A stretch of DNA of 64,000 nucleotides from a virus (Duplodnaviria; Caudoviricetes). Below the pieces are notes generated by a model, which did not search any database, was not told the origin of the DNA, and saw nothing but the letters and a program-made list of their open reading frames with translations. The position numbers and the translations under genes are program-made. The stretch covers positions 434 to 64,433 of the IMG/VR virus record IMGVR_UViG_3300042483_000317; one strand, written 5' to 3'. This document shows positions 3,799 to 52,434 of the stretch, piece after piece (the stretch's first letter is position 1; each line of letters begins with the position of its first letter).

Positions 3799-6279
3799 AT
3801 GGGATACATATTAAAAAATACACAAGGTTTACTTAGCACGAGATTAACTGATACCGCAAGATTAAAATTATCACAAGGTAGCTTTAACATCTCTTATTTC
3901 CAAGTAGGTGATAGTGAAGTGTCTTACAATACATTAACAGGTACATCATATAATCAATTTACTACACAAATTCTTGAACCGGCATTTAATGCTCAAAATT
4001 CAACAGGAGCACCTGAATCTAACAAACAAAATGTTAAGTACCCATACTATGTTGATGGAATAACAGGTAATACTTATGGAATTCCATATATGGCATCTGT
4101 TCCTCAAGCAGTTTATAATAGAGCTGCGATGAGAGGATTCTTTACCGGAGATACAACCGCAACAACTTTTACATGGAGTGCACTAACAAATAGCCAATAT
4201 ACTATTAACTCTAACTATCTTGTAGATATGTCTACTTTAACAGGTGGTAGTGTTATTCAATTAGTATATTCAGGATGTAATTCAAATATTGTAAGATTAC
4301 CATCTATTGGTGATTTTGTAACAATATATTATGATGGTCAAGGAGAATACAATTGTTATTGTGACCCAAACCCAACACCAACACCTACATCTACACCAAC
4401 ACCAACACCTACTTTTGACGCCAATCCAACCCCAACACCTACTCCAACAATAACAAAGAGTGCGAACATATGTGACCAAGGTCCAACACCAACACCTTCA
4501 TCGACTTGTTGTACTACTCCATTACCACCTACTCCGACACCACCTGATTGTGAGATGTCAATGAGTAGTTGTTATTCAATATTAACTTATAAAATTGTAG
4601 ATATTTGTAACGGTGATTACACATTAGATAGACCAACACCTGACTTTTCAAACTTTTCAAATGGATGTTTTGCCAGAGTATTAGTATATCCACCAAACAT
4701 GACGACAATATACGATAGTATTACACCTAACTCACATTGGAATCAAAATGTTATCAATTTTGAATCATTATGTAGCACGGATGAATCTGATGTTAAAATT
4801 TGGAATATGAATATTCCTTGGTCAGAAAATCCTGCAGGTTTATATGATTCAACATATAAAGGATACCCTTATTTTGGTTCAGCATCTTATATAGGAACTA
4901 AAGAATATCTTGGTTATATGTCTGATAGTGGTCAAACAGATACTGGTGTTGTTTATTATTATAATTCATTTGATGAGACAGTAGTTGTTCAACCTAGTGA
5001 ACAAAAAGCCATCGCAATTATTCATTATACTAATCAAGCGATTGATTTCTTCTATGGTGAGAAATTCGCCTTTGAACCTTACGACCCTAACAACCCTACA
5101 GATACAACAGGTGAAGCTCGTAACTTCAGATTACATTTGCCATGGTTAATGTGGCATAAAAATCCTGAATGTTGTAAAGGACAAACTTTTTGGGTTGACC
5201 CACCAGGTTTTGACGAATATTTATTGTTCAAACCATATTATATTGAATCAACCAAAAATAGTGATATGAATACTCCGGGTATTAGATATTATCAATTATG
5301 GGACACTCATGCAAACAATAATGGGTTACCAAATAGAATTGGTAAAGTATTCCCTGATTCACAAATTATTGTAATTGACGATGAAGAAATTATTGCAGCA
5401 ATGTCTTATAAATCAAATCGTAACTGGACATTACCTGCACCTCAAATTGCATTAACAACTCCTAACACTTGTGTGGTTGAGAACAATCAACCAACAGTTA
5501 GAGGTATTTTAAGTGCTAACACAGAATATATGTACGTGACTTACAGATTTAGTAATAGTAGTTTATTTACAAATTCATTACATTGTAATTATTATACTAA
5601 AATTCAAGGACCTAATATTGATTGTGGTTCGATAGTGTCTCAAAATGTATCAGTTAGATTTGGGGCTGAATTCCCTTGTTTAAATCAACCATCATTTAAC
5701 CCAACAACAACTACTACAACAACAACTACAACAACATTATGTCCGACATCATGTGATATAATTACAGGGTTCTATGCTGACACATTACAAATTCTATGTC
5801 AAAAAGTAATTGGTACAAGTAGACCTGACCCAGATGAATGGAAGATTATTGATTTTACATCACAAATAAGTGCAACAACAGTTAATGGTTATTTAACAGT
5901 AGATAGTTTAACAGGGTCAACATTTACCATCACTGAAGAAAATTACAGGTTAGCACCAATTTATGATTTAAATGATTATATCCCATTAGTATCAGGTAGT
6001 ACAACTACACCTTCATTAAATTTTGGTGATGAATATTATTTCTATGGTTCATTAGAAACTGATATTGAAGCAACCATCTATGAAATGAAATATAAGATTA
6101 ATCTTGGTCAAGCAGAGTTTCAATCAACCTCAAATCCTACTTGGACTAAAGGTACAAATTCATATATTACAGAAATTGGTCTTTACGATTCTGATATGAA
6201 TCTTATGATTATATCAAAGCTGCAATCACCGGTCTTAAGACAAGGTATTCAACAGTTTTTGGTTAAATTTGATTTCTAA
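3799..6279 (+). CDS. Baseplate/tail-collar-type structural protein with Pro/Thr and poly-Thr inserts
   Basis: N-terminal LTDTARLKL...ISYFQVGDSE and C-terminal YITEIGLYD..NLMIISKL..P resemble tail-collar/fibre-attachment domains. PT tract about 4366-4545, poly-Thr about 5704-5736. Confidence 0.6.
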   Translation: MGYILKNTQGLLSTRLTDTARLKLSQGSFNISYFQVGDSEVSYNTLTGTSYNQFTTQILEPAFNAQNSTGAPESNKQNVKYPYYVDGITGNTYGIPYMASVPQAVYNRAAMRGFFTGDTTATTFTWSALTNSQYTINSNYLVDMSTLTGGSVIQLVYSGCNSNIVRLPSIGDFVTIYYDGQGEYNCYCDPNPTPTPTSTPTPTPTFDANPTPTPTPTITKSANICDQGPTPTPSSTCCTTPLPPTPTPPDCEMSMSSCYSILTYKIVDICNGDYTLDRPTPDFSNFSNGCFARVLVYPPNMTTIYDSITPNSHWNQNVINFESLCSTDESDVKIWNMNIPWSENPAGLYDSTYKGYPYFGSASYIGTKEYLGYMSDSGQTDTGVVYYYNSFDETVVVQPSEQKAIAIIHYTNQAIDFFYGEKFAFEPYDPNNPTDTTGEARNFRLHLPWLMWHKNPECCKGQTFWVDPPGFDEYLLFKPYYIESTKNSDMNTPGIRYYQLWDTHANNNGLPNRIGKVFPDSQIIVIDDEEIIAAMSYKSNRNWTLPAPQIALTTPNTCVVENNQPTVRGILSANTEYMYVTYRFSNSSLFTNSLHCNYYTKIQGPNIDCGSIVSQNVSVRFGAEFPCLNQPSFNPTTTTTTTTTTTLCPTSCDIITGFYADTLQILCQKVIGTSRPDPDEWKIIDFTSQISATTVNGYLTVDSLTGSTFTITEENYRLAPIYDLNDYIPLVSGSTTTPSLNFGDEYYFYGSLETDIEATIYEMKYKINLGQAEFQSTSNPTWTKGTNSYITEIGLYDSDMNLMIISKLQSPVLRQGIQQFLVKFDF

Positions 6280-6285
6280 TAAAAT

Positions 6286-6885
6286 ATGAAAAAAACACTT
6301 AAAGAAAGTCCTAAAGTTTTGGGATTAGATGTGAGCACCAAAACAATTGGTTGGGCATTATTTGATATACAAAGTCGAGAACTACTTGAATTAACTCACA
6401 TCTCTCCAATACCAAAACCAAAAGAAGAAAATAAAATAAAAGAATTACTTCTTAAAGGTGAAATCTTTAGAACTAAACTTTTAGAATATAAAGATATGGG
6501 TATTACTAAAGTTATTATTGAAGAACCTTTATTAAACTCAAACAATGTTTACACAGTTCAAACTTTATTAAGATTTAATACTTTAGTTACAAAAGAGATA
6601 TATGATGTATTAGGAGTAGTGCCCGATTTCATATCAACATACAATTCTCGTAAGTTTGCCTTTCCGGAGTTAACTCAATTAAACGATAAAGGTAAATACG
6701 TACTATTTGGAGGTCTTCCTAAAGACATTGATAAGAAAATGATTATATGGGACCTAATTGCAAAAAAAGAACCTCAAATCACTTGGTTATACACAAGAAA
6801 CAATACCTTAAAAAAAGAAAATTTTGACCAAACAGATGCTTATTGTTGTGTTATAGGTCATATGAAACAAGAAAAAATATGGTAA
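6286..6885 (+). CDS. ruvC: RuvC-like Holliday junction resolvase
   Basis: VLGLDVSTKTIGWA, IIEEP and DQTDAY give the RuvC D/E/DxxD catalytic pattern; 199 aa. Confidence 0.8.
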   Translation: MKKTLKESPKVLGLDVSTKTIGWALFDIQSRELLELTHISPIPKPKEENKIKELLLKGEIFRTKLLEYKDMGITKVIIEEPLLNSNNVYTVQTLLRFNTLVTKEIYDVLGVVPDFISTYNSRKFAFPELTQLNDKGKYVLFGGLPKDIDKKMIIWDLIAKKEPQITWLYTRNNTLKKENFDQTDAYCCVIGHMKQEKIW

Positions 6886-6915
6886 AAAAATAACCCACCT
6901 TTTGGTGGGTTTTTT
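6884..6915. terminator. Bidirectional intrinsic terminator
   Basis: Stem aacccacc/ggtgggtt flanked by A and T runs, between convergent genes. Confidence 0.85.
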
Positions 6916-6916
6916 A

Positions 6917-9900
6917 TTATTGACATACTCCTGAATTTACCTGAATTTCTAACGTTGAGCTTGCTGCAACATTAACATTTAAAAACTCAACATTAAAATA
7001 TTGATTTGTTGTTGTGATTGGTACAACTTGACTCATATAAAGTGAATTATCCACATATAATAAAACACATTGTGAGTTTCCTACAAGAGATAAGAGTGTC
7101 ACAGTTATATTTTGATTTACTAACCCTAATTGAGTACCCAATAAAGGATTTGACACAGTTACAGGGAAACTATATGAACTATCATATATATAAAACGTCT
7201 GTGGTTGGATATTTGTAACTTGAGATTCTTCTTTTTGAATACTAACACTGAAATTTCTTGTTGGTTCAATATTAATTTCACTCTTACATTTTGAACAAGA
7301 ATCTTCAGTATCATTATTAGATGAATAAATTGTATTACTAATTGTTGTGAAATAATTAGTATTATAAGTTTGAACGTTTAATTCTGGTGGTAATGTTGGT
7401 TGTCCGTTATAAATATCTTTTAATCTCCAACACGTCACATTACCTCTAATGTCAGTAGAACTAAATCCGTCCGCAATTAATAAACCAGGTAATACTAATA
7501 TAGGTTGCAATATATAGGATGTTTCCCCCTCATTATTAAGCTCACATGATGCGTATAAATACCATAATGGGTCTGCACTAGGTGTTGGTGTCATAGTCGG
7601 TGTTCTTGTTGGAGTTGGTGTTAATGTTTGAGTTAATGTTGGTGTTAATGTTGGAGTATTTGTTGGTGTAGATGTTAATGTTTGAGTTAAAGTTTGTGTA
7701 GGCGTTGATGTAGGTGTGGCTCCTAATGTTGTTGTTTGAGTCGGAGTATTAGTTAATGTAGGCGTTAATGTAGGCGTTTGAGTTGGAGTAGGTGTTTGAG
7801 TTAAAGTTTGTGTTGGAGTTAATGTAGGTGTTGGCGTAGGTGCTAAACCACAATATTGACATGAAATGTTATATTCAATAAATACATCAACAGTAACATC
7901 TGTAGCAACCAAATATTGAGCCTCACATTTTGCGATTATTTGAATCCCATTGTTTAATGAGTCAATATTTACTTGAGCAACTTGGTCAAAACTTTCTAAT
8001 AACGCCACTAAAGCATTAAAATATTCTTCATCCGTTGGATAGTCGTTTAAAGCATAACTTATATAAAATTCTGAAGTTTCTGTAACATCCCCAATAATTG
8101 CAACAATATTAAATATTGCTTGATTCAGTAAACAATTTGTATATCCGGAAGTTAAATCATAATAACCTTCGTTTAACATTTCTTTTGGACCTTTTTTAAC
8201 TAATTCTCCAATGTTTTCAAAATCACTATCACAAATATTAAATGTTTGAAACGATGAGAGTAAATCAAATCCATCTATAGTTACACTTCGAGTTTTAACA
8301 CATCCAGCACTATCAGTTACTTGTAAACTGTATGTCCCCGCACTTAAATTACTTAAATAATAACCTGTTTGACCATTTACGTTATTACTCCATAATAATG
8401 TAAAAGGTGGTGTCCCTTGTGTGATATATGCCGATACTGTACCATCGTTACCATTATTAGCATCAGTACCTGATATTAAAAAATCAACATTGTTAGATGT
8501 ATTAATTACAAAGTTAATTATTTGAGCACATCCCGGAACAGCATCATCAATTTCAGCCGCGTAAGCACCTGAAAATAAATTATTAAATGTTACCGCACTT
8601 GTCTCAATTTGTTGTAATTGACTTCCTATATTTATTGTATAAGGTGGTGTACCACCTGAAATACTAATTTGTACAGAACCATTTTGTAAATCACAAGTTG
8701 TTCCTGTTGTACTAGCACTTAAAGTAAAAGGAGATGTAGTTGATATTGTATATGGATTAGTATATACACAAGCACCATTATCAGAAATTGTTAATGTGTA
8801 AGTATCTGCAGCTAAATTAACAAATTGCCAAACAGATGAGTTTGTTGATTGATTTTGAATATCACCGTTAGAATTTACTAAAGTATATGTAAAAGGTGGT
8901 TGACCACCTAACAGAGTTATTTCTATTTTTCCGTTATTCCCACAATTTGCATTGATTGTATTAATTGTCACAATTGAAAATCCATTTGGTGTTAATACTG
9001 TTATTGAACCGACAACGGAACATAACGCAGCATCCGTTACTTTTACTGAAAATAATCCGGTTCCTATATTTTGAAATGTTTGTGAAGAACTAAATGACAC
9101 ATTTATTTGACCTGTAGACGCCGAATAATAATATGGTCCTGTACCTCCTGAAACAGTTACTGTTACCTCACCATCAGATGAAAAACAAGACGGTGGCACA
9201 CTTGTTAGAATACCAGCAATACCCAACGCAGGAACTAACCCAACTGTCGCACTTTGAGATAATGTACAATTTGTACTATCCGTTATTGTTACACTGTATG
9301 TACCATTTGTTAACCCTGTAATAAAATCAGTTGTTTCACCATTAGACCATAAATAAGTAAATGGAGCATTACCCGTTAAACCTGTCACATATATCTTACC
9401 TGATTCAACACTATTACATCCGGAATCTTCAACTATATAAAAACCCCAAGTAATTGTTGTTGATGGTTTTATAATAATAGTTTCAGAAGTTCCTGTACAA
9501 CCACCTCCATCATCAGCAACTACATAATAAATCCCCGGTGATAATGCTGGCGGTGTTATAAAGGTATTATAACCTGTTGTTGCTGAGGTTATAAACCCTG
9601 TTAATGTATTGTATAAATAAAAATCCGCAGAACCATAAAAACTACTAGTTTGAGCAGTTAACGCACCATTATCAAAATTACATGTTGTATTTTGTTGACC
9701 TATAATACTTACACAAGTACCACTAGAAATATTAACATTTACCGGTAAAGAAGTTTGAGATGGACTAGAACAAGAATCTAAAACATTAAAGGTATATGTT
9801 CCCGCCGATAAAGATGTTGCGGTATATCCTGTAACACCAGGACCTAAAGCTATTGTTCCAAGTGCTGGCGAAATCCACTGAATACTATAATCAGGTGCAA

Positions 9901-17773: not shown

Positions 17774-20700
17774 TTAATTTATAAATGTTGTGGTATCAAT
17801 CCATTTAGTTGTAAACCTATCAAATGCTGAAGCACCTTTCTTTAAACCAAAGTAAAAATAAAATGGTGCCCCTACTGTCACTGTTTGTTCTTTAGGATTA
17901 TTTTTATCCCAATTTGAAATACTTTCATCTATATCTCCATTAGCGTTGACAGCGTATATATAACCTTTATAATATTTATTTTTAGATGAATTAATTGCTG
18001 TACCTCTAAAATATCTTGAAACAGTCTCTATTCTATCCATTGATTGATATTTTGAGGAAAGGAATCCGCCATTATCTATAGGGTCTGTATACCACCCATT
18101 TTTTTCATCACCAAATATTGATTGATAATCAGAAATTTCCCACTGATAAAATGGTACTTGTTGACTAAATACATCAAAATAACTAAACGCACATGTTACA
18201 TTAGCCGGAACATCATCATCAACAATAGTTCTTTTTGGTGTTATAAAATCTCTAGTTTGAGTATCCGAACTAAAGAAAATACCTATAACTGAACTATCTG
18301 AATTAAATCCGTTCCAATAAATAGGATTTTGGATTCCCGGTGGACTATCAGGATAATTTGCCGATTCAAAAGGTGCAACACCAAGTTCTGAATTAATTGA
18401 AATTAATTGAGCATAATCTCCGTCAACTTTATATTTTACTCGTGTAAAATATGCCGTAATATTTGAACCCACCAAAAATTGTAACATTTGGTCAATAAAA
18501 CTTTTATTAATTAATCGACTAATAATTAATAAATTTAATATTTCAGTCACATTACCATATGTTGTTGTCGCCAATCTATTAACCACATAACCATCATATG
18601 CGTCTGACATGACTAATTCTTGTAAATAAGCACTTCTTGGACCTAAATCCATTAAAGTTGTTGGAGTTAATAGATAATTAAAATTATCACCTTGAGCATT
18701 ACTAAAACTAGACGATGATGGCCTATCTTTACCAATAAAAGTACCGTTAGAATCTTTATATGGACTACTTCTATAATAAAAATTATTAGTTGTATGTAAC
18801 ACTAATGTATCTGTACAAAACTCACTATTTGGTTGATTTGGTTGATTTCCAAATGGACTGCTATATGTCACATCATTATGGAATGAATATGCGTATAGAG
18901 TACCATTTATCCAATTATTTGCAAATATATGAGACCATACATTTCTACACGCACCAAGATTAATACTACTTCTAGATATCCATTCAGTTAATAACTGAAA
19001 ATCTTCGAGTAATGATATAAAAACTGTTGTAACAACAATATAACAACCACCTTTAAATATTGTTTCACCTTCAAATTCTTCACATGAACCATGACTAATA
19101 GTCATATTACCTTGACCATCGTCACCATAACATTCTAAAGGTACAGAACCAGCACAACTAAATGAATCAATAATACTACTTGTAAAATTTGTACCTTCAA
19201 CTTTAAAATCTGCCGCACCACCTCCACCACCAGTTGAAGCCGCAGTTGTTGCTGTATCAAGACCAACCAATCCTTCATCAGGAATATCATACATTGCAAA
19301 AGATTCGTTATGTTGTAATGCAAATCCATTACAACAATTCTGTTGTACATTTGTTGATGTTGGTAATCTATCTGACCTCATGACCATTTTTCGACTATTG
19401 GCTCCTGATGTTAAATTATAAGTTAATGTATTACCTGTAGTGTTGTATATTGGCGCGTAATAATTACCATCCCAAGTAAAACCATTATAAGTAGCAGGAG
19501 GATTTACACTAAATACCATGTACATTAATGAACCACCCTCAACTATTTCACCAACATAATACCCTCTATTTAAATTAACATTAGAACCATTACCATTTGA
19601 CGCAGGAAGATAATAACCTCCATATATACAAGCTGGGAAAGGGAAAGACCCGCAAGGAAAATTAATTGGTTGAGCAGAATTATTAGACCATTCTTTAGTA
19701 AAACCATTTTGAGTTATAACTTTTAATCCAAAGGTAGAATTTGATTGAGCCCCATTTGAAACAGGTAGAGGAGCTTCAAGACCATTAGGTGGTGCAGGAC
19801 AGTTTGGTGTATATGTTAACTGAGTATTATCTAATTTAGAATAATAACTGAATAGTGAGGATGTAAACGAGGTAAAACCCGATGCACCAATATTAGGAAA
19901 AAAATCAAACGTATCAAAATATAATTTTTCACCTGAATAGGTATCCGTAGACAAATTACTTGATATATTAGCCATATCATGACTAACATTTTTAAAACTA
20001 CCCTGTATTGGATAATTCATTTTATAATTACCTTCAATAATTAATGATGGGTCAGTACCTAATGTTTTACCAAATAAAATATTTAAATCATATCTAATTT
20101 TCACTCTAGGTACATTAGGGTCAACACCTCTATTTAAGATTAAAACACATTGTTGGTCAGGGTCTTTTAAATAAACCAATGGTTTTTTAAATATTGGAAA
20201 TTGTTGACTACTATCTTTTGTATAAGGACCACCCCATGGACCTGCAGTTAGTCCCGGACCTCCATACCATCTCTGAATAAACATGTCATTATATAAAAAT
20301 CTTTGATTAAGAGAATTTGGTATCATTGTCCCACAATGCCCACTAAATTCTGAATAAGTCATACCGGTTATAACTTGAAAATACTCTAAATCTATTGGAA
20401 ATTTATAGTAATCATTATATCCACCTGTTGTCCCACTAATTTGTGTTGAACCTGTTAACATAACATTATAATTAACAGGTACCGGAGAACCACCAATATT
20501 AGGACTAGCATAATTAAAAGAAACTGAAGTCATTCCTGTAGATGTAAATCCTGTAATAGCTCGATTACCATACGAATTTGTAACACCACTAATTAAATTA
20601 ATATCTTTATTTAATATAGGGTCTTGGAATGTAATTATTTGACCAATAGTTAAACTACTTAAACTACTTTTCTCACATAAAATGACTATAGTATTATCAT

Positions 20701-23080
20701 AATGAAAATTAGTAGTTTGAGTTGGTGGATTATTATCTGGGTCAAACGTTACTTTTATTCTATTAACTCCACCACCGGGATTTGAACCAGGACTATTATC
20801 GAAATATTTAGCTTTTGTATTAAATAAATTTATTCTTTCCGCTAAACTTAAATTGGATGAAAATATATGGTCATTTTCTTGATTATCACTAGTCGCATAG
20901 GTAATTGTATTAACTCCCGGAACACCAACACTATTATCACTATTTCCCGCAGGTAATGTACCTGAAAAAGTTGTCGTAACCGCATTTTTTACCGAAGCAT
21001 CAACAGAATTACCCGGAATTTTAAATATTGCCCCACCAACCCCTAATATAGACAATGTTGATGATAAAACGTTAGTCGAGTCTGGGTCAAGATATATATA
21101 AGGACAAGGTACTTCTTCAGCAGTATCTGTTCCAACATCTGAAACTGATGTTGATGCCTCTTCACTTATCGTACCTGAAGTACTAGGAGTTTCACCAACT
21201 TGACAATCACATAAATCACAATCAGGGTAAGTTAATAAAGGTAATGAAACCCCTTTTAACTCCATTTTCCATAATTCCCTTAAAATATATCCAAGAGCCA
21301 CAAGAAGTAATGCGTAAAGAACAAGTTGAAGAGAATAACCAATTATTAAACCTAACGCATACGGTACAGTTCCCGCAATTAAAACTATGGTATTTATAAT
21401 TTGAACTATATAATAAAGTATTAAGGCGGGTATAATTAATATCCTAAGCAACATTATAGTAAAATACAGTAAGTGCAAAGTTATTAACAATCCATACAGT
21501 ACGGGTCTAAAAACCATCATTAAAAATGAGTATAAGATGTAAATTATATCAAATCTCATATTAGAATCGTTTGTTGGAAATTTGTTATTCTCACTATTAC
21601 AACTATCGTCTAAAATATTTTTAATACCAATAAATCTATCAGGAGTCACACCTTTTCGATATTTATCAAGTAATTGAGATACAGTATAAACTTTATTGTA
21701 TTGCATAACATAAAATTTATCATCACAATCAATCGCTTCTTGAATCATTTGACGACCTATTTGAGCACCAGTACTATTAGATGTTCCAGTATAACCATAA
21801 TCCGCCCAATCTAAACTAAACGCGTATGATTTCATAGCCAAATCATATGGTGAATTTAGAGCCCTATTAGAGGATTCTAATGGGTCTGTTCCACTACTAG
21901 TCCACCCATGTTCTCTAACATTTGGTACTATAAAATAACCTCTTTTAATTTGTTCAGATAATGATGGAGATTGGTCCCATTTTACTTTAAAACGACATTT
22001 GGCTCTAGTTGGAATACCTTTTTTAGGGTCATTGGATATTACTTGTTCACCAAATTCATTTGTTATATAATAATCCAAATTCATTGGGATATCAACTAAC
22101 CATGTACCATTCTCGTCAATAACTTTCCCCCCCTCATCTAAATCAAAAGATTCTAATATTGGTCTACCATATGTGTCCTGAAATATTGTTTGTCGTATAC
22201 CTAAAATTTCACCCGGACCCGCAGTTAAACTACATTGATAACCCGCATTACCTCTAACCTTACATGATTTTTTTAAAGCGTCTTCCTCAATTGTCGAAAC
22301 TAAAGACCCCATAAAAATGGCGGTAGGATTAATATCAATCCCTGCCTCAGATGATAAATCAAAGTCAGTTCTTGTTATACCTAAATTACATATTTGAGGT
22401 TGTCCCCATAAAGGTTCAACTTCAACAGTTCTGTTAATAGTGACAATTTGAGGTAAACTTCTTAAATTGGTCGATGATTTAAATGATACCCCCGCAACTT
22501 GAGATGGTGTTGCGATACCCATTCTTATTAAATCTTGCGGTGATAATGAAAATTCCCCAATGTCTGATAAGTCAATATCAACAACTATTGTTTGACTACC
22601 GGTTGGTAATCCAAATATCATATAATCACCACTTGTATTGGTTACGGTAGAAAATTTATAATACTTGTCATAAACTTCAATTAATGTTGGGTCAACTAAA
22701 ACATCTTTTCTATCAAAGAAAGTGCCTGTTGGTATATGTCCACTATGAGATTGTTTATAAGGAAGTAGGTTATAACGATACCCATCATCATTAAGGTCGG
22801 AAAGTGATTTATAAGGGTATAATTCAGAAATAACAGGGTCTAACTCGTCAGTACTATCTAACGGGACAAATATCGAAACTTTTGCATTTGGAATACCAAA
22901 ACCATTATTAACACTTACTCTACCAACAAGAACTCCATAGTCAGAGCATTGTCTAGTGTATATTTGACTTTGTAATATTTTTAGAGATAATATTTCTAAA
23001 TACTCAAATTCTTGGTCTATCAAGACGTTAAGTGATTTGTCAACACCAGGCTCCGTTCTTATTCTAAATGAATTGGACAT
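17774..23080 (-). CDS. Large tail-associated protein with an N-terminal carboxypeptidase-regulatory-like beta-sandwich and a ~95-aa hydrophobic segment
   Basis: GRVSVNNGFGIPNAKVSIF...TNTSGDYMIFGLPTG; hydrophobic stretch encoded at about 21270-21555. Confidence 0.55.
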   Translation of the reverse strand: MSNSFRIRTEPGVDKSLNVLIDQEFEYLEILSLKILQSQIYTRQCSDYGVLVGRVSVNNGFGIPNAKVSIFVPLDSTDELDPVISELYPYKSLSDLNDDGYRYNLLPYKQSHSGHIPTGTFFDRKDVLVDPTLIEVYDKYYKFSTVTNTSGDYMIFGLPTGSQTIVVDIDLSDIGEFSLSPQDLIRMGIATPSQVAGVSFKSSTNLRSLPQIVTINRTVEVEPLWGQPQICNLGITRTDFDLSSEAGIDINPTAIFMGSLVSTIEEDALKKSCKVRGNAGYQCSLTAGPGEILGIRQTIFQDTYGRPILESFDLDEGGKVIDENGTWLVDIPMNLDYYITNEFGEQVISNDPKKGIPTRAKCRFKVKWDQSPSLSEQIKRGYFIVPNVREHGWTSSGTDPLESSNRALNSPYDLAMKSYAFSLDWADYGYTGTSNSTGAQIGRQMIQEAIDCDDKFYVMQYNKVYTVSQLLDKYRKGVTPDRFIGIKNILDDSCNSENNKFPTNDSNMRFDIIYILYSFLMMVFRPVLYGLLITLHLLYFTIMLLRILIIPALILYYIVQIINTIVLIAGTVPYALGLIIGYSLQLVLYALLLVALGYILRELWKMELKGVSLPLLTYPDCDLCDCQVGETPSTSGTISEEASTSVSDVGTDTAEEVPCPYIYLDPDSTNVLSSTLSILGVGGAIFKIPGNSVDASVKNAVTTTFSGTLPAGNSDNSVGVPGVNTITYATSDNQENDHIFSSNLSLAERINLFNTKAKYFDNSPGSNPGGGVNRIKVTFDPDNNPPTQTTNFHYDNTIVILCEKSSLSSLTIGQIITFQDPILNKDINLISGVTNSYGNRAITGFTSTGMTSVSFNYASPNIGGSPVPVNYNVMLTGSTQISGTTGGYNDYYKFPIDLEYFQVITGMTYSEFSGHCGTMIPNSLNQRFLYNDMFIQRWYGGPGLTAGPWGGPYTKDSSQQFPIFKKPLVYLKDPDQQCVLILNRGVDPNVPRVKIRYDLNILFGKTLGTDPSLIIEGNYKMNYPIQGSFKNVSHDMANISSNLSTDTYSGEKLYFDTFDFFPNIGASGFTSFTSSLFSYYSKLDNTQLTYTPNCPAPPNGLEAPLPVSNGAQSNSTFGLKVITQNGFTKEWSNNSAQPINFPCGSFPFPACIYGGYYLPASNGNGSNVNLNRGYYVGEIVEGGSLMYMVFSVNPPATYNGFTWDGNYYAPIYNTTGNTLTYNLTSGANSRKMVMRSDRLPTSTNVQQNCCNGFALQHNESFAMYDIPDEGLVGLDTATTAASTGGGGGAADFKVEGTNFTSSIIDSFSCAGSVPLECYGDDGQGNMTISHGSCEEFEGETIFKGGCYIVVTTVFISLLEDFQLLTEWISRSSINLGACRNVWSHIFANNWINGTLYAYSFHNDVTYSSPFGNQPNQPNSEFCTDTLVLHTTNNFYYRSSPYKDSNGTFIGKDRPSSSSFSNAQGDNFNYLLTPTTLMDLGPRSAYLQELVMSDAYDGYVVNRLATTTYGNVTEILNLLIISRLINKSFIDQMLQFLVGSNITAYFTRVKYKVDGDYAQLISINSELGVAPFESANYPDSPPGIQNPIYWNGFNSDSSVIGIFFSSDTQTRDFITPKRTIVDDDVPANVTCAFSYFDVFSQQVPFYQWEISDYQSIFGDEKNGWYTDPIDNGGFLSSKYQSMDRIETVSRYFRGTAINSSKNKYYKGYIYAVNANGDIDESISNWDKNNPKEQTVTVGAPFYFYFGLKKGASAFDRFTTKWIDTTTFIN

Positions 23081-49913: not shown

Positions 49914-49955
49914 AATACACCAAAGACATATTTTAATTTACGTCTTTGGTGTATT
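49914..49955 (-). promoter_or_regulatory. 14-17 bp hairpin enclosing the stop codon of the +1-frame ORF
   Basis: aatacaccaaagac (49914-49927) pairs with gtctttggtgtatt (49942-49955). Confidence 0.6.
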
Positions 49956-50096
49956 ATCTTCTATTATTCTGTTTATTAAAAATTTTCTAACATAAGTAGG
50001 CATCTCATTGAAGTCACTGTATGATGTTCTAATGAACTTTGCCATCAAGTAATATTCCTCAATAATAAGTTGTCGGTAGTTAAAAGAAAGGCCGAA
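49938..50096 (-). CDS. Unannotated gp51-like / gpT-like chaperone extension in the +1 frame of the upstream gene
   Basis: FGLSFNYRQLIIEEYYLMAKFIRTSYSDFNEMPTYVRKFLINRIIEDNTPKT* fills the gap before the tape measure gene; the MPxxxR motif is typical of tail-chaperone second ORFs. Confidence 0.7.
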   Translation of the reverse strand, partial: FGLSFNYRQLIIEEYYLMAKFIRTSYSDFNEMPTYVRKFLINRIIEDNTPKT

Positions 50097-50835
50097 AAAA
50101 CTCCACCCCAAAGGTTATCTCGAAAGATACCAGTTCTCCTGACGGGGCGTTTGCTGTTCTCTTAAGGTCCAATGACGGTTCATTTTCTCTTAAAAAAGTT
50201 CTTATGTATTTTGAGTCCATAATAGGTAAAGTATCAACAAACATAGCTATTTTACCTCTATCACTATCACCATCAATTTCAACAATTTGTTTTTGTAATT
50301 TCCAAGTAACTCTTGGTGCCTGTCTTCCTGCCGGATATTGTTCAACCATTTTATCTAACTCAATTGTATCATAAAAAGTTGTAGGTCTTATTTTAACTGT
50401 AGTTCCTGTTTTAGGTAATGTTGTTGTAAAAAACCCATTTTCATCTGGTTGATGTTGAGTTTTTTTAATATTTAATTCATCTAATATAACAGTATGTGTA
50501 AATGTTTTATTAGTTTGTGGGTCAACCAAATTAATTATATATTCCGGTCCAAAAGAAGTATTTCTCAAAAAGATTAAAATAGCTTCTACATCACCATCTA
50601 ATAATTCTTCAGGTCGTAAATCATGTTCATATAATTTATTTCTTAATAATGTTAAGACAACATTTTCTTTACCCGCCAATGCACCAATTAAATAATTTTC
50701 ATCAGATGCTGTTAAATAACCAACTTTAACTGACTTTTTTTTAGATTTATAAAAAATTCCACCACTCGGTAATGATACTACATCATGTGGTAATGTGAAA
50801 TTTTCCGTTCCTGCGTTAATTAAACTCTCATCCAT
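50080..50835 (-). CDS. T4 gp26-like baseplate hub / tail assembly chaperone
   Basis: LPSGGIFY, LTASDENYL, LLDGDVEAILIFLR..SFG and C-terminal FF. Confidence 0.75.
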   Translation of the reverse strand: MDESLINAGTENFTLPHDVVSLPSGGIFYKSKKKSVKVGYLTASDENYLIGALAGKENVVLTLLRNKLYEHDLRPEELLDGDVEAILIFLRNTSFGPEYIINLVDPQTNKTFTHTVILDELNIKKTQHQPDENGFFTTTLPKTGTTVKIRPTTFYDTIELDKMVEQYPAGRQAPRVTWKLQKQIVEIDGDSDRGKIAMFVDTLPIMDSKYIRTFLRENEPSLDLKRTANAPSGELVSFEITFGVEFFRPFF

Positions 50836-51615: not shown

Positions 51616-52434
51616 TTAATATTCTTTTTTTATTCCTCCTGCTGTAGAATAAGTTTTAATAATATTTTCAGGGTCTTTCTCAAAATGTTTCTTTACTACA
51701 TCCACATTTTTTAAGTCGTCATCTGAAAAACCTATTTTTGGGACAAAATAATTATTTATTTTATTTTTTAAAAACGCCTTTTTTTGTATATGTTGAGACA
51801 TTGCTTTAACATATTGAACAAATTCTTTTAACGCTTTAATTTTTCCTTCCTCCGGATTTGTTGCGGAACCTTCTCCATAACTCACAGGATAAAATCTACA
51901 TAAATCTAAATATTCCTTAATCATTTCTTTTTTAGAAACATTATCTTCATCATCTAAATCTCTGTATTTTTCTAAATTTTTTACTAACTCATTTGAATCA
52001 ATACCATTAAGATTTGAAACAATGTAATTATAACAAGCATCTTTAATTACTGATGGTGTATGTCCTCTAGCAGTAACAATTGAAAATATAGACCCATTGT
52101 TAATCGCCTCAACAAAATCAGGCCAAGCAGGTCCCGGTTTTGCTAACATAGAATCAACAATAAATTGTTTATCTCCTTTAACTCCAAAATATCTAAAAGG
52201 TTCGTCTGAAAATCCAACGATTGTGTGACCATCAAATTCAAATGGTTCTTTACCAATTTCTTCTCTATAAGTCGCAAAATCTTCTGTAGACATTCCTACC
52301 TCATCACCATCTTCATCTTTTAATATTATTTTTGTTGGCATTGAAACTATATTATCGTCCCAATCGAACGCGTAATATTTTTCATCCGGAGCACCAAACT
52401 CATCAATACCTTCTACAATTTTATTATTTAACAT
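51616..52434 (-). CDS. HAD-superfamily phosphatase-like protein
   Basis: AFDWDDNI (motif I), IVTARG (II), a conserved Lys, and GFSDDD..N (IV). Confidence 0.75.
   Translation of the reverse strand: MLNNKIVEGIDEFGAPDEKYYAFDWDDNIVSMPTKIILKDEDGDEVGMSTEDFATYREEIGKEPFEFDGHTIVGFSDEPFRYFGVKGDKQFIVDSMLAKPGPAWPDFVEAINNGSIFSIVTARGHTPSVIKDACYNYIVSNLNGIDSNELVKNLEKYRDLDDEDNVSKKEMIKEYLDLCRFYPVSYGEGSATNPEEGKIKALKEFVQYVKAMSQHIQKKAFLKNKINNYFVPKIGFSDDDLKNVDVVKKHFEKDPENIIKTYSTAGGIKKEY

Follow-up and report, generated by a model that had tools for sequence, protein, structure and literature searches.

A probable +1 ribosomal frameshift in a gp26/gp51-family gene of a jumbo-phage fragment

Overlapping reading frames at the 3' end of the gene

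The gene considered here lies on the minus strand of a 64-kb fragment of viral DNA (IMG/VR record IMGVR_UViG_3300042483_000317, positions 434 to 64,433) that is estimated to be 22% of a genome; "the window" refers to this whole stretch of 64,000 nucleotides (nt). The gene belongs to the T4 gp26/gp51 family, and its 3' end is overlapped by a second open reading frame (ORF) which, according to an earlier note on this DNA, is probably entered by a programmed +1 frameshift. The following features make up the overlap:

50835-50080, minus strand: frame-0 gene for the short ("G-like") product, 251 amino acids (aa) plus stop; PF12322, T4 gp26/gp51 family
50111-49938, minus strand: second ORF, in the +1 (= -2) frame relative to the 251-codon gene
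50100-50092, minus strand: candidate shift site UUU UUU CGG, from sequence and conservation
50093-49938, minus strand: +1-frame extension, a "T-like" C-terminal domain of 51 codons plus stop TAA (49940-49938)
50048-50043, minus strand: candidate internal start TTG ATG (50048/50045) in the +1 frame, preceded by GAGGA

Read along the minus strand, the frame-0 gene ends with GAG TTT TTT CGG CCT TTC TTT TAA, where the six Ts occupy 50100-50095, CGG 50094-50092 and the stop codon 50082-50080. This gene end, the open +1 frame and the early closure of the -1 frame had been described in the earlier note and were all confirmed, the -1 frame closing 17 nt beyond the frame-0 stop. If TTTC is read as one step, translation yields a predicted product of 298 aa with the junction FGVEFFGLSFNYRQ (...GVEFF-GLSFNYRQ...), as had been predicted. 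TTT_C occurs in frame just once in the window gene, namely at the proposed site.

Conservation of the proposed shift site in close relatives

From 483 relatives, the 80 closest viral contigs (71-96% protein identity) were taken as the close set. This group is redundant: together with the window it comprises 81 sequences, 37 of which are distinct. The earlier note had suggested aligning relatives for a conserved TTT(T)CGN, and TTTTTTC is indeed kept in 80/80. In all of them, too, the +1 frame runs on for 139-145 nt beyond the stop, whereas the -1 frame closes after 14-17 nt. Such an arrangement of the shift site is far beyond chance. Furthermore, CCTTTGGGGT is invariant in 81/81 sequences of the window group (37 distinct). 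RNA contigs from two studies match the DNA over about 34 nt around the site (50076-50113) with both flanks diverged, which fits an unusually strong nucleotide conservation of the site among diverged relatives. Contigs from four metatranscriptome runs yielded short pieces of the gene, and no single one crossed the site with useful flanks.

Selection on the +1 frame can be followed codon position by codon position in the 37 distinct relatives. Within the 34 nt from the frame-0 stop to ATG 50045, the variable first, second and third +1 codon positions number 6/11, 5/11 and 11/12, and the changes include synonymous replacements of Arg (CGA/AGA) and Leu (CTT/TTA) codons; in the remaining extension the corresponding numbers are 24, 16 and 34 of 35. 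The +1 coding signature begins immediately 3' of the frame-0 stop. Between the U run and that stop, variation is synonymous in frame 0 (CGN; TTC/TTT), and the Pro codon CCT is invariant, as expected if its last two bases also code for Leu in the +1 frame.

The internal TTG/ATG was found where the earlier note had placed it (50048/50045). At this position the distinct relatives have ATG (19), TTG (11) or no start codon at all (7), and two of the loci (L073 and L079) contain no ATG, GTG or TTG from the site to codon 24-26 of the extension. Conservation is thus not confined to the part downstream of ATG 50045, a possibility raised in the note, since third positions vary synonymously upstream of it and 7/37 relatives lack a start there. 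A further TTG at 50111 is kept in 37/37 distinct relatives because it lies inside the invariant block. A slip at the stop codon itself (TTT TAA) was considered and rejected, as many relatives have TTC TAA there.

Codon usage and sequence context

Codons were counted in the 35 window ORFs of at least 150 aa (19,888 codons, 573 of them for Arg). The earlier note had regarded CGG as rare in an AGA-preferring genome, and the counts agree: AGA accounts for 438/573 Arg codons, AGA and AGG together for 83%, and CGG is the rarest with 1/573 (1/19,888 of all codons), its sole occurrence being at the shift site. The codon following the U run in the window group (n = 81) is CGG in 50 sequences, CGA in 17, CGC in 11, CGT in two and CTC in one; it is never AGA or AGG, despite the dominance of these codons in the window. 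No tRNA genes were found in the window. The only other in-frame TTT TTT C in the 35 long ORFs lies in a 1768-codon ORF on the minus strand (approximately 17777-23080) and is not followed by CGG.

A second element adjoins the U run on its 5' side:

50109-50101, minus strand: Shine-Dalgarno (SD)-like G-rich run GGGGTGGAG, directly 5' of U6

The G-rich run GGGGUGGAG is built of minor codons (GGG, 11.7% of Gly; GTG, 11% of Val; GAG, 21% of Glu codons). An SD-like core no more than 17 nt upstream of the site is present in 81/81 window-group sequences vs 15/98 of the other overlapping loci described below, and the run is a possible stimulator of the shift in the window phage group only.

Distribution of the extension domain

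A profile of the extension domain retrieved 952 cluster representatives (50% identity) at E <= 1e-3 among 1.84 billion. The top 150 include 148 with a length of 50-134 aa and 113 with an FFGL-like motif near the start. Further loci were fetched by distant queries, and the analysis was anchored on hidden Markov model (HMM) matches to the extension domain. The domain is present in 184 of the 187 loci that were scanned; 179 of these have it in the +1 frame, overlapping the end of a PF12322 gene, with an in-frame TTT_Y inside the overlap, and two more (L134 and L138) are of the same overlapping type behind assembly frame breaks or Ns (total 181/184). The 179 junction sites read as follows:

TTT TTT CGN or CTC CCT: 81 loci
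TTT TTT TGG CCT: 80 loci
TTC TTT TGG CCT: 14 loci
TTT TTT CAC: 2 loci (SP-15, present twice)
TTT CTT TGG: 1 locus (immuto)
TTT CTA: 1 locus (LR756508)

The one feature shared by every overlapping form is an in-frame UUU that precedes a pyrimidine and then GG, or a rare C-initial codon. The "hungry" Arg codon of the earlier note may apply to the window with its rare CGG, but it is not a general rule, since TGG follows TTT in 94/179 loci. The site lies 15 nt ahead of the stop in 138/179 loci. In 35/179, no ATG, GTG or TTG precedes the site in the extension frame, and in 29/179 no start codon occurs until 15 codons into the domain. The overlap is tightest in L086-L094, where a +1-frame stop is found 20 nt before the frame-0 stop and the whole shift window is GC TTC TTT TGG CCT GAC GAA.

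Three cultured phages, Bacillus phage SP-15, Flavobacterium phage immuto and Streptococcus phage GXN1, share the layout tube, PF12322 gene, +1 ORF and tape measure, with the sites TTT TTT CAC, TTT CTT TGG and TTC TTT CGT, respectively; the extension of GXN1 is diverged and was missed by the domain HMM. In the records of immuto and SP-15 the extension has its own entry as a "hypothetical protein", in hundreds of metagenomic gene calls it begins at arbitrary codons, and the long product is absent from every record examined. Searching 50,697 phage records by tblastn with the 53-aa extension gave no match at E <= 10. Likewise, a PHROGs scan with the window extension and the extensions of nine relatives gave none at E <= 0.001; among scattered weaker matches was one relative's extension to phrog_32580, "tail assembly chaperone" (E = 0.034). 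Three of the proteins found carry unrelated sequence after the extension domain (P0217, 266 aa; P0241, 159 aa; P0140, 134 aa) and may be next-gene fusions or artefacts of assembly or gene calling.

Separate-start and in-frame forms as natural controls

In three of the 184 loci the domain is encoded by a gene of its own:

L096, 3232-3549: separate extension gene with own ATG, -1 frame; the site reads TTC TTG TAT
L102, 3223-3510: separate extension gene with own ATG, -1 frame; the site reads TTC CTT TGG
L168, approximately 1471-1794: separate extension gene with own ATG, beginning 9 nt past the stop; the site reads TTC TTC TGG

TTT_Y is lost in 3/3 of these loci, and the separate proteins have a leader of about 19 extra residues.

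The opposite arrangement is found in 27 database proteins of 236-331 aa, which contain PF12322 and the extension domain in one frame with the junction IPIDSNFFGLTPEYRQ (FFGL). The predicted 298-aa product aligns with this in-frame long family collinearly through the junction (E = 3.6e-32, residues 12-293, 275 columns). At 7/7 in-frame loci a short paralog immediately precedes the long paralog in tandem (39% identity, E = 6e-57). The short paralog ends in LFWPNANV, matches phrog_150 over positions 10-234 and is coded TTA TTC TGG CCT at its end, and is therefore without TTT_Y; the long paralog is coded GAT TTT TTT GGT TTA at the junction and matches phrog_150 over 9-280. These loci (L188-L194, approximately 5050-6980) are marine phage contigs in which the PF12322 paralogs are adjacent and on the same strand, a T4-like (26/51) solution.

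As for the number of PF12322 genes in complete close-relative genomes, two contain one each and a third contains one plus a sub-threshold match. A six-frame PF12322 search of G005, the complete record of L096 (187,848 bases), gave no match. The L096 gene, which is 42% identical to the LR756508 family member, is nonetheless present in it, and such a quick genome search thus misses diverged PF12322 members.

Protein family and predicted fold

The gp26-like identity proposed earlier was corroborated, as the 251-aa protein matches PF12322 (T4_baseplate) with E = 2.2e-7 and 31.3 bits, above the gathering cut-off of 24.5; the six-frame genome search gave 30.5 bits. For comparison, T4 gp26 and gp51 score 215.6 and 177.5 bits on this family. 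Residues 15-248 also match phrog_150, "baseplate hub" (E = 1.3e-10, profile positions 12-233 of 282), and database entries of the family are annotated as "baseplate hub subunit". No Pfam family besides PF12322 was matched at E <= 0.01, so that no curated chaperone family was matched, and a sequence search of the PDB found no relative.

An AlphaFold model of the window protein (46 homologues; pLDDT 87.9) was compared with 48,161 representative chains. Only three reach Z >= 5, all on model residues 130-229: YqbN (3klu; Z 5.7, rmsd 3.5, 84 residues aligned), the best fold match, Rbstp2171 (3fgx; Z 5.4, rmsd 3.9, 89/96 aligned) and HK97 gp13 (2ob9; Z 5.4, rmsd 3.2, 78 aligned). The next rows have Z 4.5 and 3.9, and the next unrelated ones <= 3.4. 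PMC9603447 describes exactly YqbN, Rbstp2171 and HK97 gp13 as the solved tail assembly chaperones. Because the list of fold matches is specific to them, the model supports a chaperone fold for the PF12322 protein of the window. In a model of an in-frame long homologue the same three chains are the only non-coiled-coil matches (Z 5.3-7.8), with 3fgx (Z 7.8) and 2ob9 on the N-terminal half and 3klu on the second half; the fold is thus possibly present in two copies. Foldseek against the PDB, applied to this long homologue model only, returned nothing at E <= 0.001.

Relation to T4 gp26 and gp51

T4 gp26 (208 aa) and gp51 (249 aa) both belong to PF12322 and phrog_150 and so share their Pfam and PHROG families with the window gene. 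On phrog_150, gp26 covers positions 14-235 and gp51 13-280: gp26 ends near the end of the window frame-0 protein (233), and gp51 and the in-frame long forms with the window-type extension both reach 280. The phrog_150 match of the predicted 298-aa product itself reaches only position 242. The earlier note had called the extension gp51-like. Compared with 22 gp51 homologues, the in-frame long forms match to the last residues of gp51 (E = 3.6e-5, probability 71.5%), whereas the extension profile alone is collinear with the gp51 family over 46 columns at a non-significant E of 0.14. Against single gp51 or gp26 the extension profile is likewise not significant (E = 0.21 and 0.19). Judging from these alignments, the extension is likely homologous to the last approximately 45 residues of gp51, a link made through the bridging in-frame homologues only.

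Direct sequence similarity between the window gene and its T4 counterparts is weak: with BLASTP the window proteins found no match in T4 gp26 or gp51, and the window-family profile matches gp26 with an E of 0.31. Moreover, the two T4 proteins come from separate genes, transcribed divergently, without a frameshift. A database table lists a second Pfam family, PF28602, on gp51 homologues; it is absent from our local Pfam scan of T4 gp51. In PMC3004832 (Table 2), gp26 and gp51 are listed as hub assembly chaperones of unknown mechanism. The present results suggest that T4 gp26 is the short form and gp51 the long form, fixed in two genes.

Genomic neighbourhood

The surrounding genes, all on the minus strand, are in the order sheath, 272-aa ORF, tube, 251-codon ORF, short +1-frame ORF, 626-aa ORF and 1669-aa ORF. 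Those of known or presumed function and a further element are:

55904-52491, minus strand: sheath gene, from the ORF list
51438-50950, minus strand: tail tube gene, T4 gp19 type, directly upstream; phrog_4542 "tail tube protein", E = 3e-25
49892-48012, minus strand: presumed tape measure gene, 626 aa, directly downstream; from position and size only
49914-49955, minus strand: terminator-like hairpin of 17 pairs followed by a T-rich tail, from a pattern scan

The position of the gene between tube and tape measure, as stated in the earlier note, is secured on the tube side by the PHROG match (the match to PF06841 is weak, with 20.2 bits below the cut-off). The 626-aa gene had no family match in the Pfam and PHROGs scans; its assignment comes from position, size and the gene at the equivalent position in immuto, which is annotated as tail tape measure protein. 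Complete close relatives are 272-318 kb in size, and the window, with a G+C content of 31.3% (AT-rich), is a jumbo-phage fragment with T4-type genes for the tube and the hub chaperone. The earlier note spoke of a T4-like myophage; the source phage is no close relative of T4.

The sheath protein is unusually long (1137 aa from the listed TTG start) and contains a Thr/Ser-rich low-complexity insert, TTTTSTSTTTTTTNPCTTTTSTSTTSTTT. The 272-aa ORF between sheath and tube (51616-52434, minus strand) matches nothing in Pfam or PHROGs at E <= 0.01. The hairpin takes in the end of the +1 ORF, with 22 nt separating it from the ATG of the next gene; its block GTCTTTGGTGTATTTATTTATAAA is kept in relatives, and its arms seem to covary between subgroups. 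Its role may be that of a terminator or an attenuator, or it may belong to a late-promoter region. An Rfam search gave only sub-threshold chance matches, which fell on this hairpin.

Proposed mechanism and alternatives

We think it probable that the window gene encodes a tail (hub/tube) assembly chaperone of a jumbo myophage and gives rise to two proteins from one start by a +1 shift at UUU UUU CGG. Most ribosomes would stay in frame 0 and terminate at 50082-50080, releasing the 251-aa short form. A minority would pause with peptidyl-tRNA-Phe on the second UUU (50097-50095) while the A site awaits the very rare CGG. The tRNA-Phe would then re-pair one base forward on UUC (50096-50094), so that GGC (50093-50091) becomes the next codon, and the shifted reading would add 51 residues to give the 298-aa long form. 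The ribosomal +1 nature of the shift, its efficiency, and a stimulation by pausing at CGG and perhaps by the upstream GGGGUGGAG are what we infer in this scheme. The short part might bind the tape measure and the extension might recruit tube or hub subunits. The pair is probably the counterpart of lambda gpG/gpGT and homologous to T4 gp26 (short form) and probably gp51 (long form). A +1 slip of peptidyl-tRNA-Phe is favoured because UUU plus pyrimidine is common to all overlapping forms and because the tetranucleotide UUU_Y is described as especially prone to +1 shifting in bacteria (PMC5009743). The G/GT-type pair made by tRNA-Phe slipping from UUU to UUC, as put forward in the earlier note, is accordingly the reading best supported by the comparative data.

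The same protein (EFFGL at the junction) would result if RNA polymerase dropped one U on the U6 run, which is a U7 run in many relatives. T runs of 6 or 7 are found in 160/179 overlapping loci, and the product of a one-base deletion corresponds to the natural in-frame genes (GAT TTT TTT GGT TTA). However, the overlap is still kept in 17 loci with only T4 (14 of which read TTC TTT TGG) and in two with T3, GXN1 has TTC TTT CGT, and the rarity of CGG, like the preference for CGN over AGR, points to pausing during decoding. To our knowledge, runs of three or four Ts are too short for bacterial polymerase slippage, and we consider transcriptional slippage unlikely as the source of the long form. 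A -2 frameshift, as reported for phage Mu, would reach the same frame with one extra Phe (EFFFGL), and the earlier note was right that this works on U6, where re-pairing of tRNA-Phe two bases back is perfect, as it is on U7. As the mechanism of the family it fails: it is impossible at the 14 TTC TTT TGG loci, in immuto (TTT CTT), in LR756508 (TTT CTA) and in GXN1, which leaves +1 as the only mechanism common to the family, and natural in-frame homologues have two Phe at the junction, not three. A -2 shift is hence very improbable.

Instead of a fusion, the small ORF might be translated independently from TTG 50111, from TTG/ATG 50048/50045 or by termination-reinitiation, giving a free peptide of 35-57 aa. 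Gene callers do list the domain as small proteins (148 among the top 150), GAGGA precedes TTG/ATG 50048/50045 by 7-10 nt, and in three relatives the domain has a gene and an ATG of its own. These three, though, have the leader and have lost TTT_Y, and elsewhere no start is conserved: a start codon is missing at 50045 in 7/37 distinct relatives and anywhere up to codon 24-26 in L073 and L079, and none precedes the site in 35/179 loci. The nucleotides ahead of ATG 50045 moreover evolve as +1 coding sequence, and the fusion junction matches natural long proteins. We therefore hold independent translation to be quite unlikely. That the overlap has no function at all, being a chance open frame or an assembly error, is hardly credible; short open frames are generally frequent in AT-rich DNA, but this arrangement is kept in 181/184 loci, has 952 cluster matches and bears the +1 codon-position signature.

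Several observations nevertheless count against the proposed +1 shift or narrow its reach. The long T runs just mentioned would also suit a slipping polymerase, and the window phage has possible +1-frame starts at TTG 50111 and, behind GAGGA, at TTG/ATG 50048/50045. The SD-like run is restricted to the window's phage group, and GGG_G (50109-50106), within the same 32-nt shift window, could also slip +1, again in this group only. Conserved RNA structure downstream of the site was not found, the consensus fold of 14 relatives containing 0 compensatory pairs; the single-sequence RNA fold has a z-score of 0.14. Additional in-frame TTT_C are present in homologues (four in the immuto gene, one more in that of LR756508), and UUU_Y alone hence does not define the site. 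Since the domain is a separate polypeptide in 3/184 loci, covalent fusion is not an absolute need. Finally, the fold Z-scores are modest, and the survey loci are redundant samples, not independent lineages.

Comparison with known recoding systems

A tail-assembly-chaperone frameshift conserved in long-tailed phages, with criteria for a G/GT-type pair, was reportedly described by Xu, Hendrix and Duda in 2004. Like lambda gpG/gpGT, the window gene lies between tube and presumed tape measure genes, its predicted short and C-terminally extended products share one start, and the extension frame lacks a conserved start of its own; in addition, a domain of the protein model resembles the chaperone fold of HK97 gp13, YqbN and Rbstp2171. 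Unlike in lambda, the shift would be +1 at UUU_Y instead of -1 on an X XXY YYZ heptamer, and the protein is about twice as large (251 aa) and matched no chaperone Pfam family. A -1 slippery route into the extension was not found, the -1 frame closing 14-17 nt after the stop in 80/80 loci.

In prfB, the gene of release factor RF2, the P-site tRNA slips +1 at a slow A site. The window site would be similar in this respect and, within its group, is so in the SD-like run just upstream. It differs in having a sense codon where prfB has a stop as the presumed slow codon of the A site, and in the distance from the G-rich run to the second UUU, which is 3-6 nt depending on the pairing; the run is also absent in most relatives. 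With the bacterial UUU_Y sites and Yersinia YopN-TyeA (PMC5009743), the window site shares a P-site UUU followed by a pyrimidine and the independence from a stop codon; here, by contrast, the site has been retained throughout a very large family of phage genes and leads into a conserved domain. The same source gives UCC_UUU_CGU as the +1 cassette of influenza A PA-X (PMC5009743). It has the UUU_CGN core in common with the window site, and possibly also the slow decoding of the Arg codon, but it is used by a eukaryotic ribosome and host, and many window relatives have UGG instead of CGN. A further +1 shift in a myovirus tail chaperone gene is that of the haloarchaeal HSTV-2, from an unrelated host domain, where the shift is "very likely +1" (PMC5009743); the likeness is by description.

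Implications for the gp26/gp51 family

PMC5009743 names T4 as the exception ("except T4") to a G-T frameshift that is otherwise conserved among long-tailed phages. A full-text literature search, with subscription journals and supplements outside its reach, retrieved no paper that ties the PF12322 family to a frameshift or to a chaperone fold. On balance, we slightly favour a wider interpretation in which the PF12322 "baseplate hub subunits" act in T4-type myophages as the tail assembly chaperones, with a lambda-type chaperone fold and a +1 shift at UUU_Y as their ancestral and commonest mode of expression. T4 would be an exception that arose by duplication into 26 (short) and 51 (long), and the marine tandem paralogs would be an independent or intermediate case.

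If this is true, the family would be among the largest natural +1 frameshifting families in bacterial systems, with 952 clusters carrying the extension. For annotation, it means that the extension is filed as a separate or arbitrarily started ORF and that the long product is overlooked. Natural +1 shifts are few, and here the site is fixed across many lineages and comes with natural controls in which it is lost once the domain has its own start or the gene is duplicated; the family would thus be a good system for studying what sets +1 efficiency. For phage assembly, it offers a testable answer to the missing G/GT frameshift of T4 and suggests concrete roles for gp26 and gp51.

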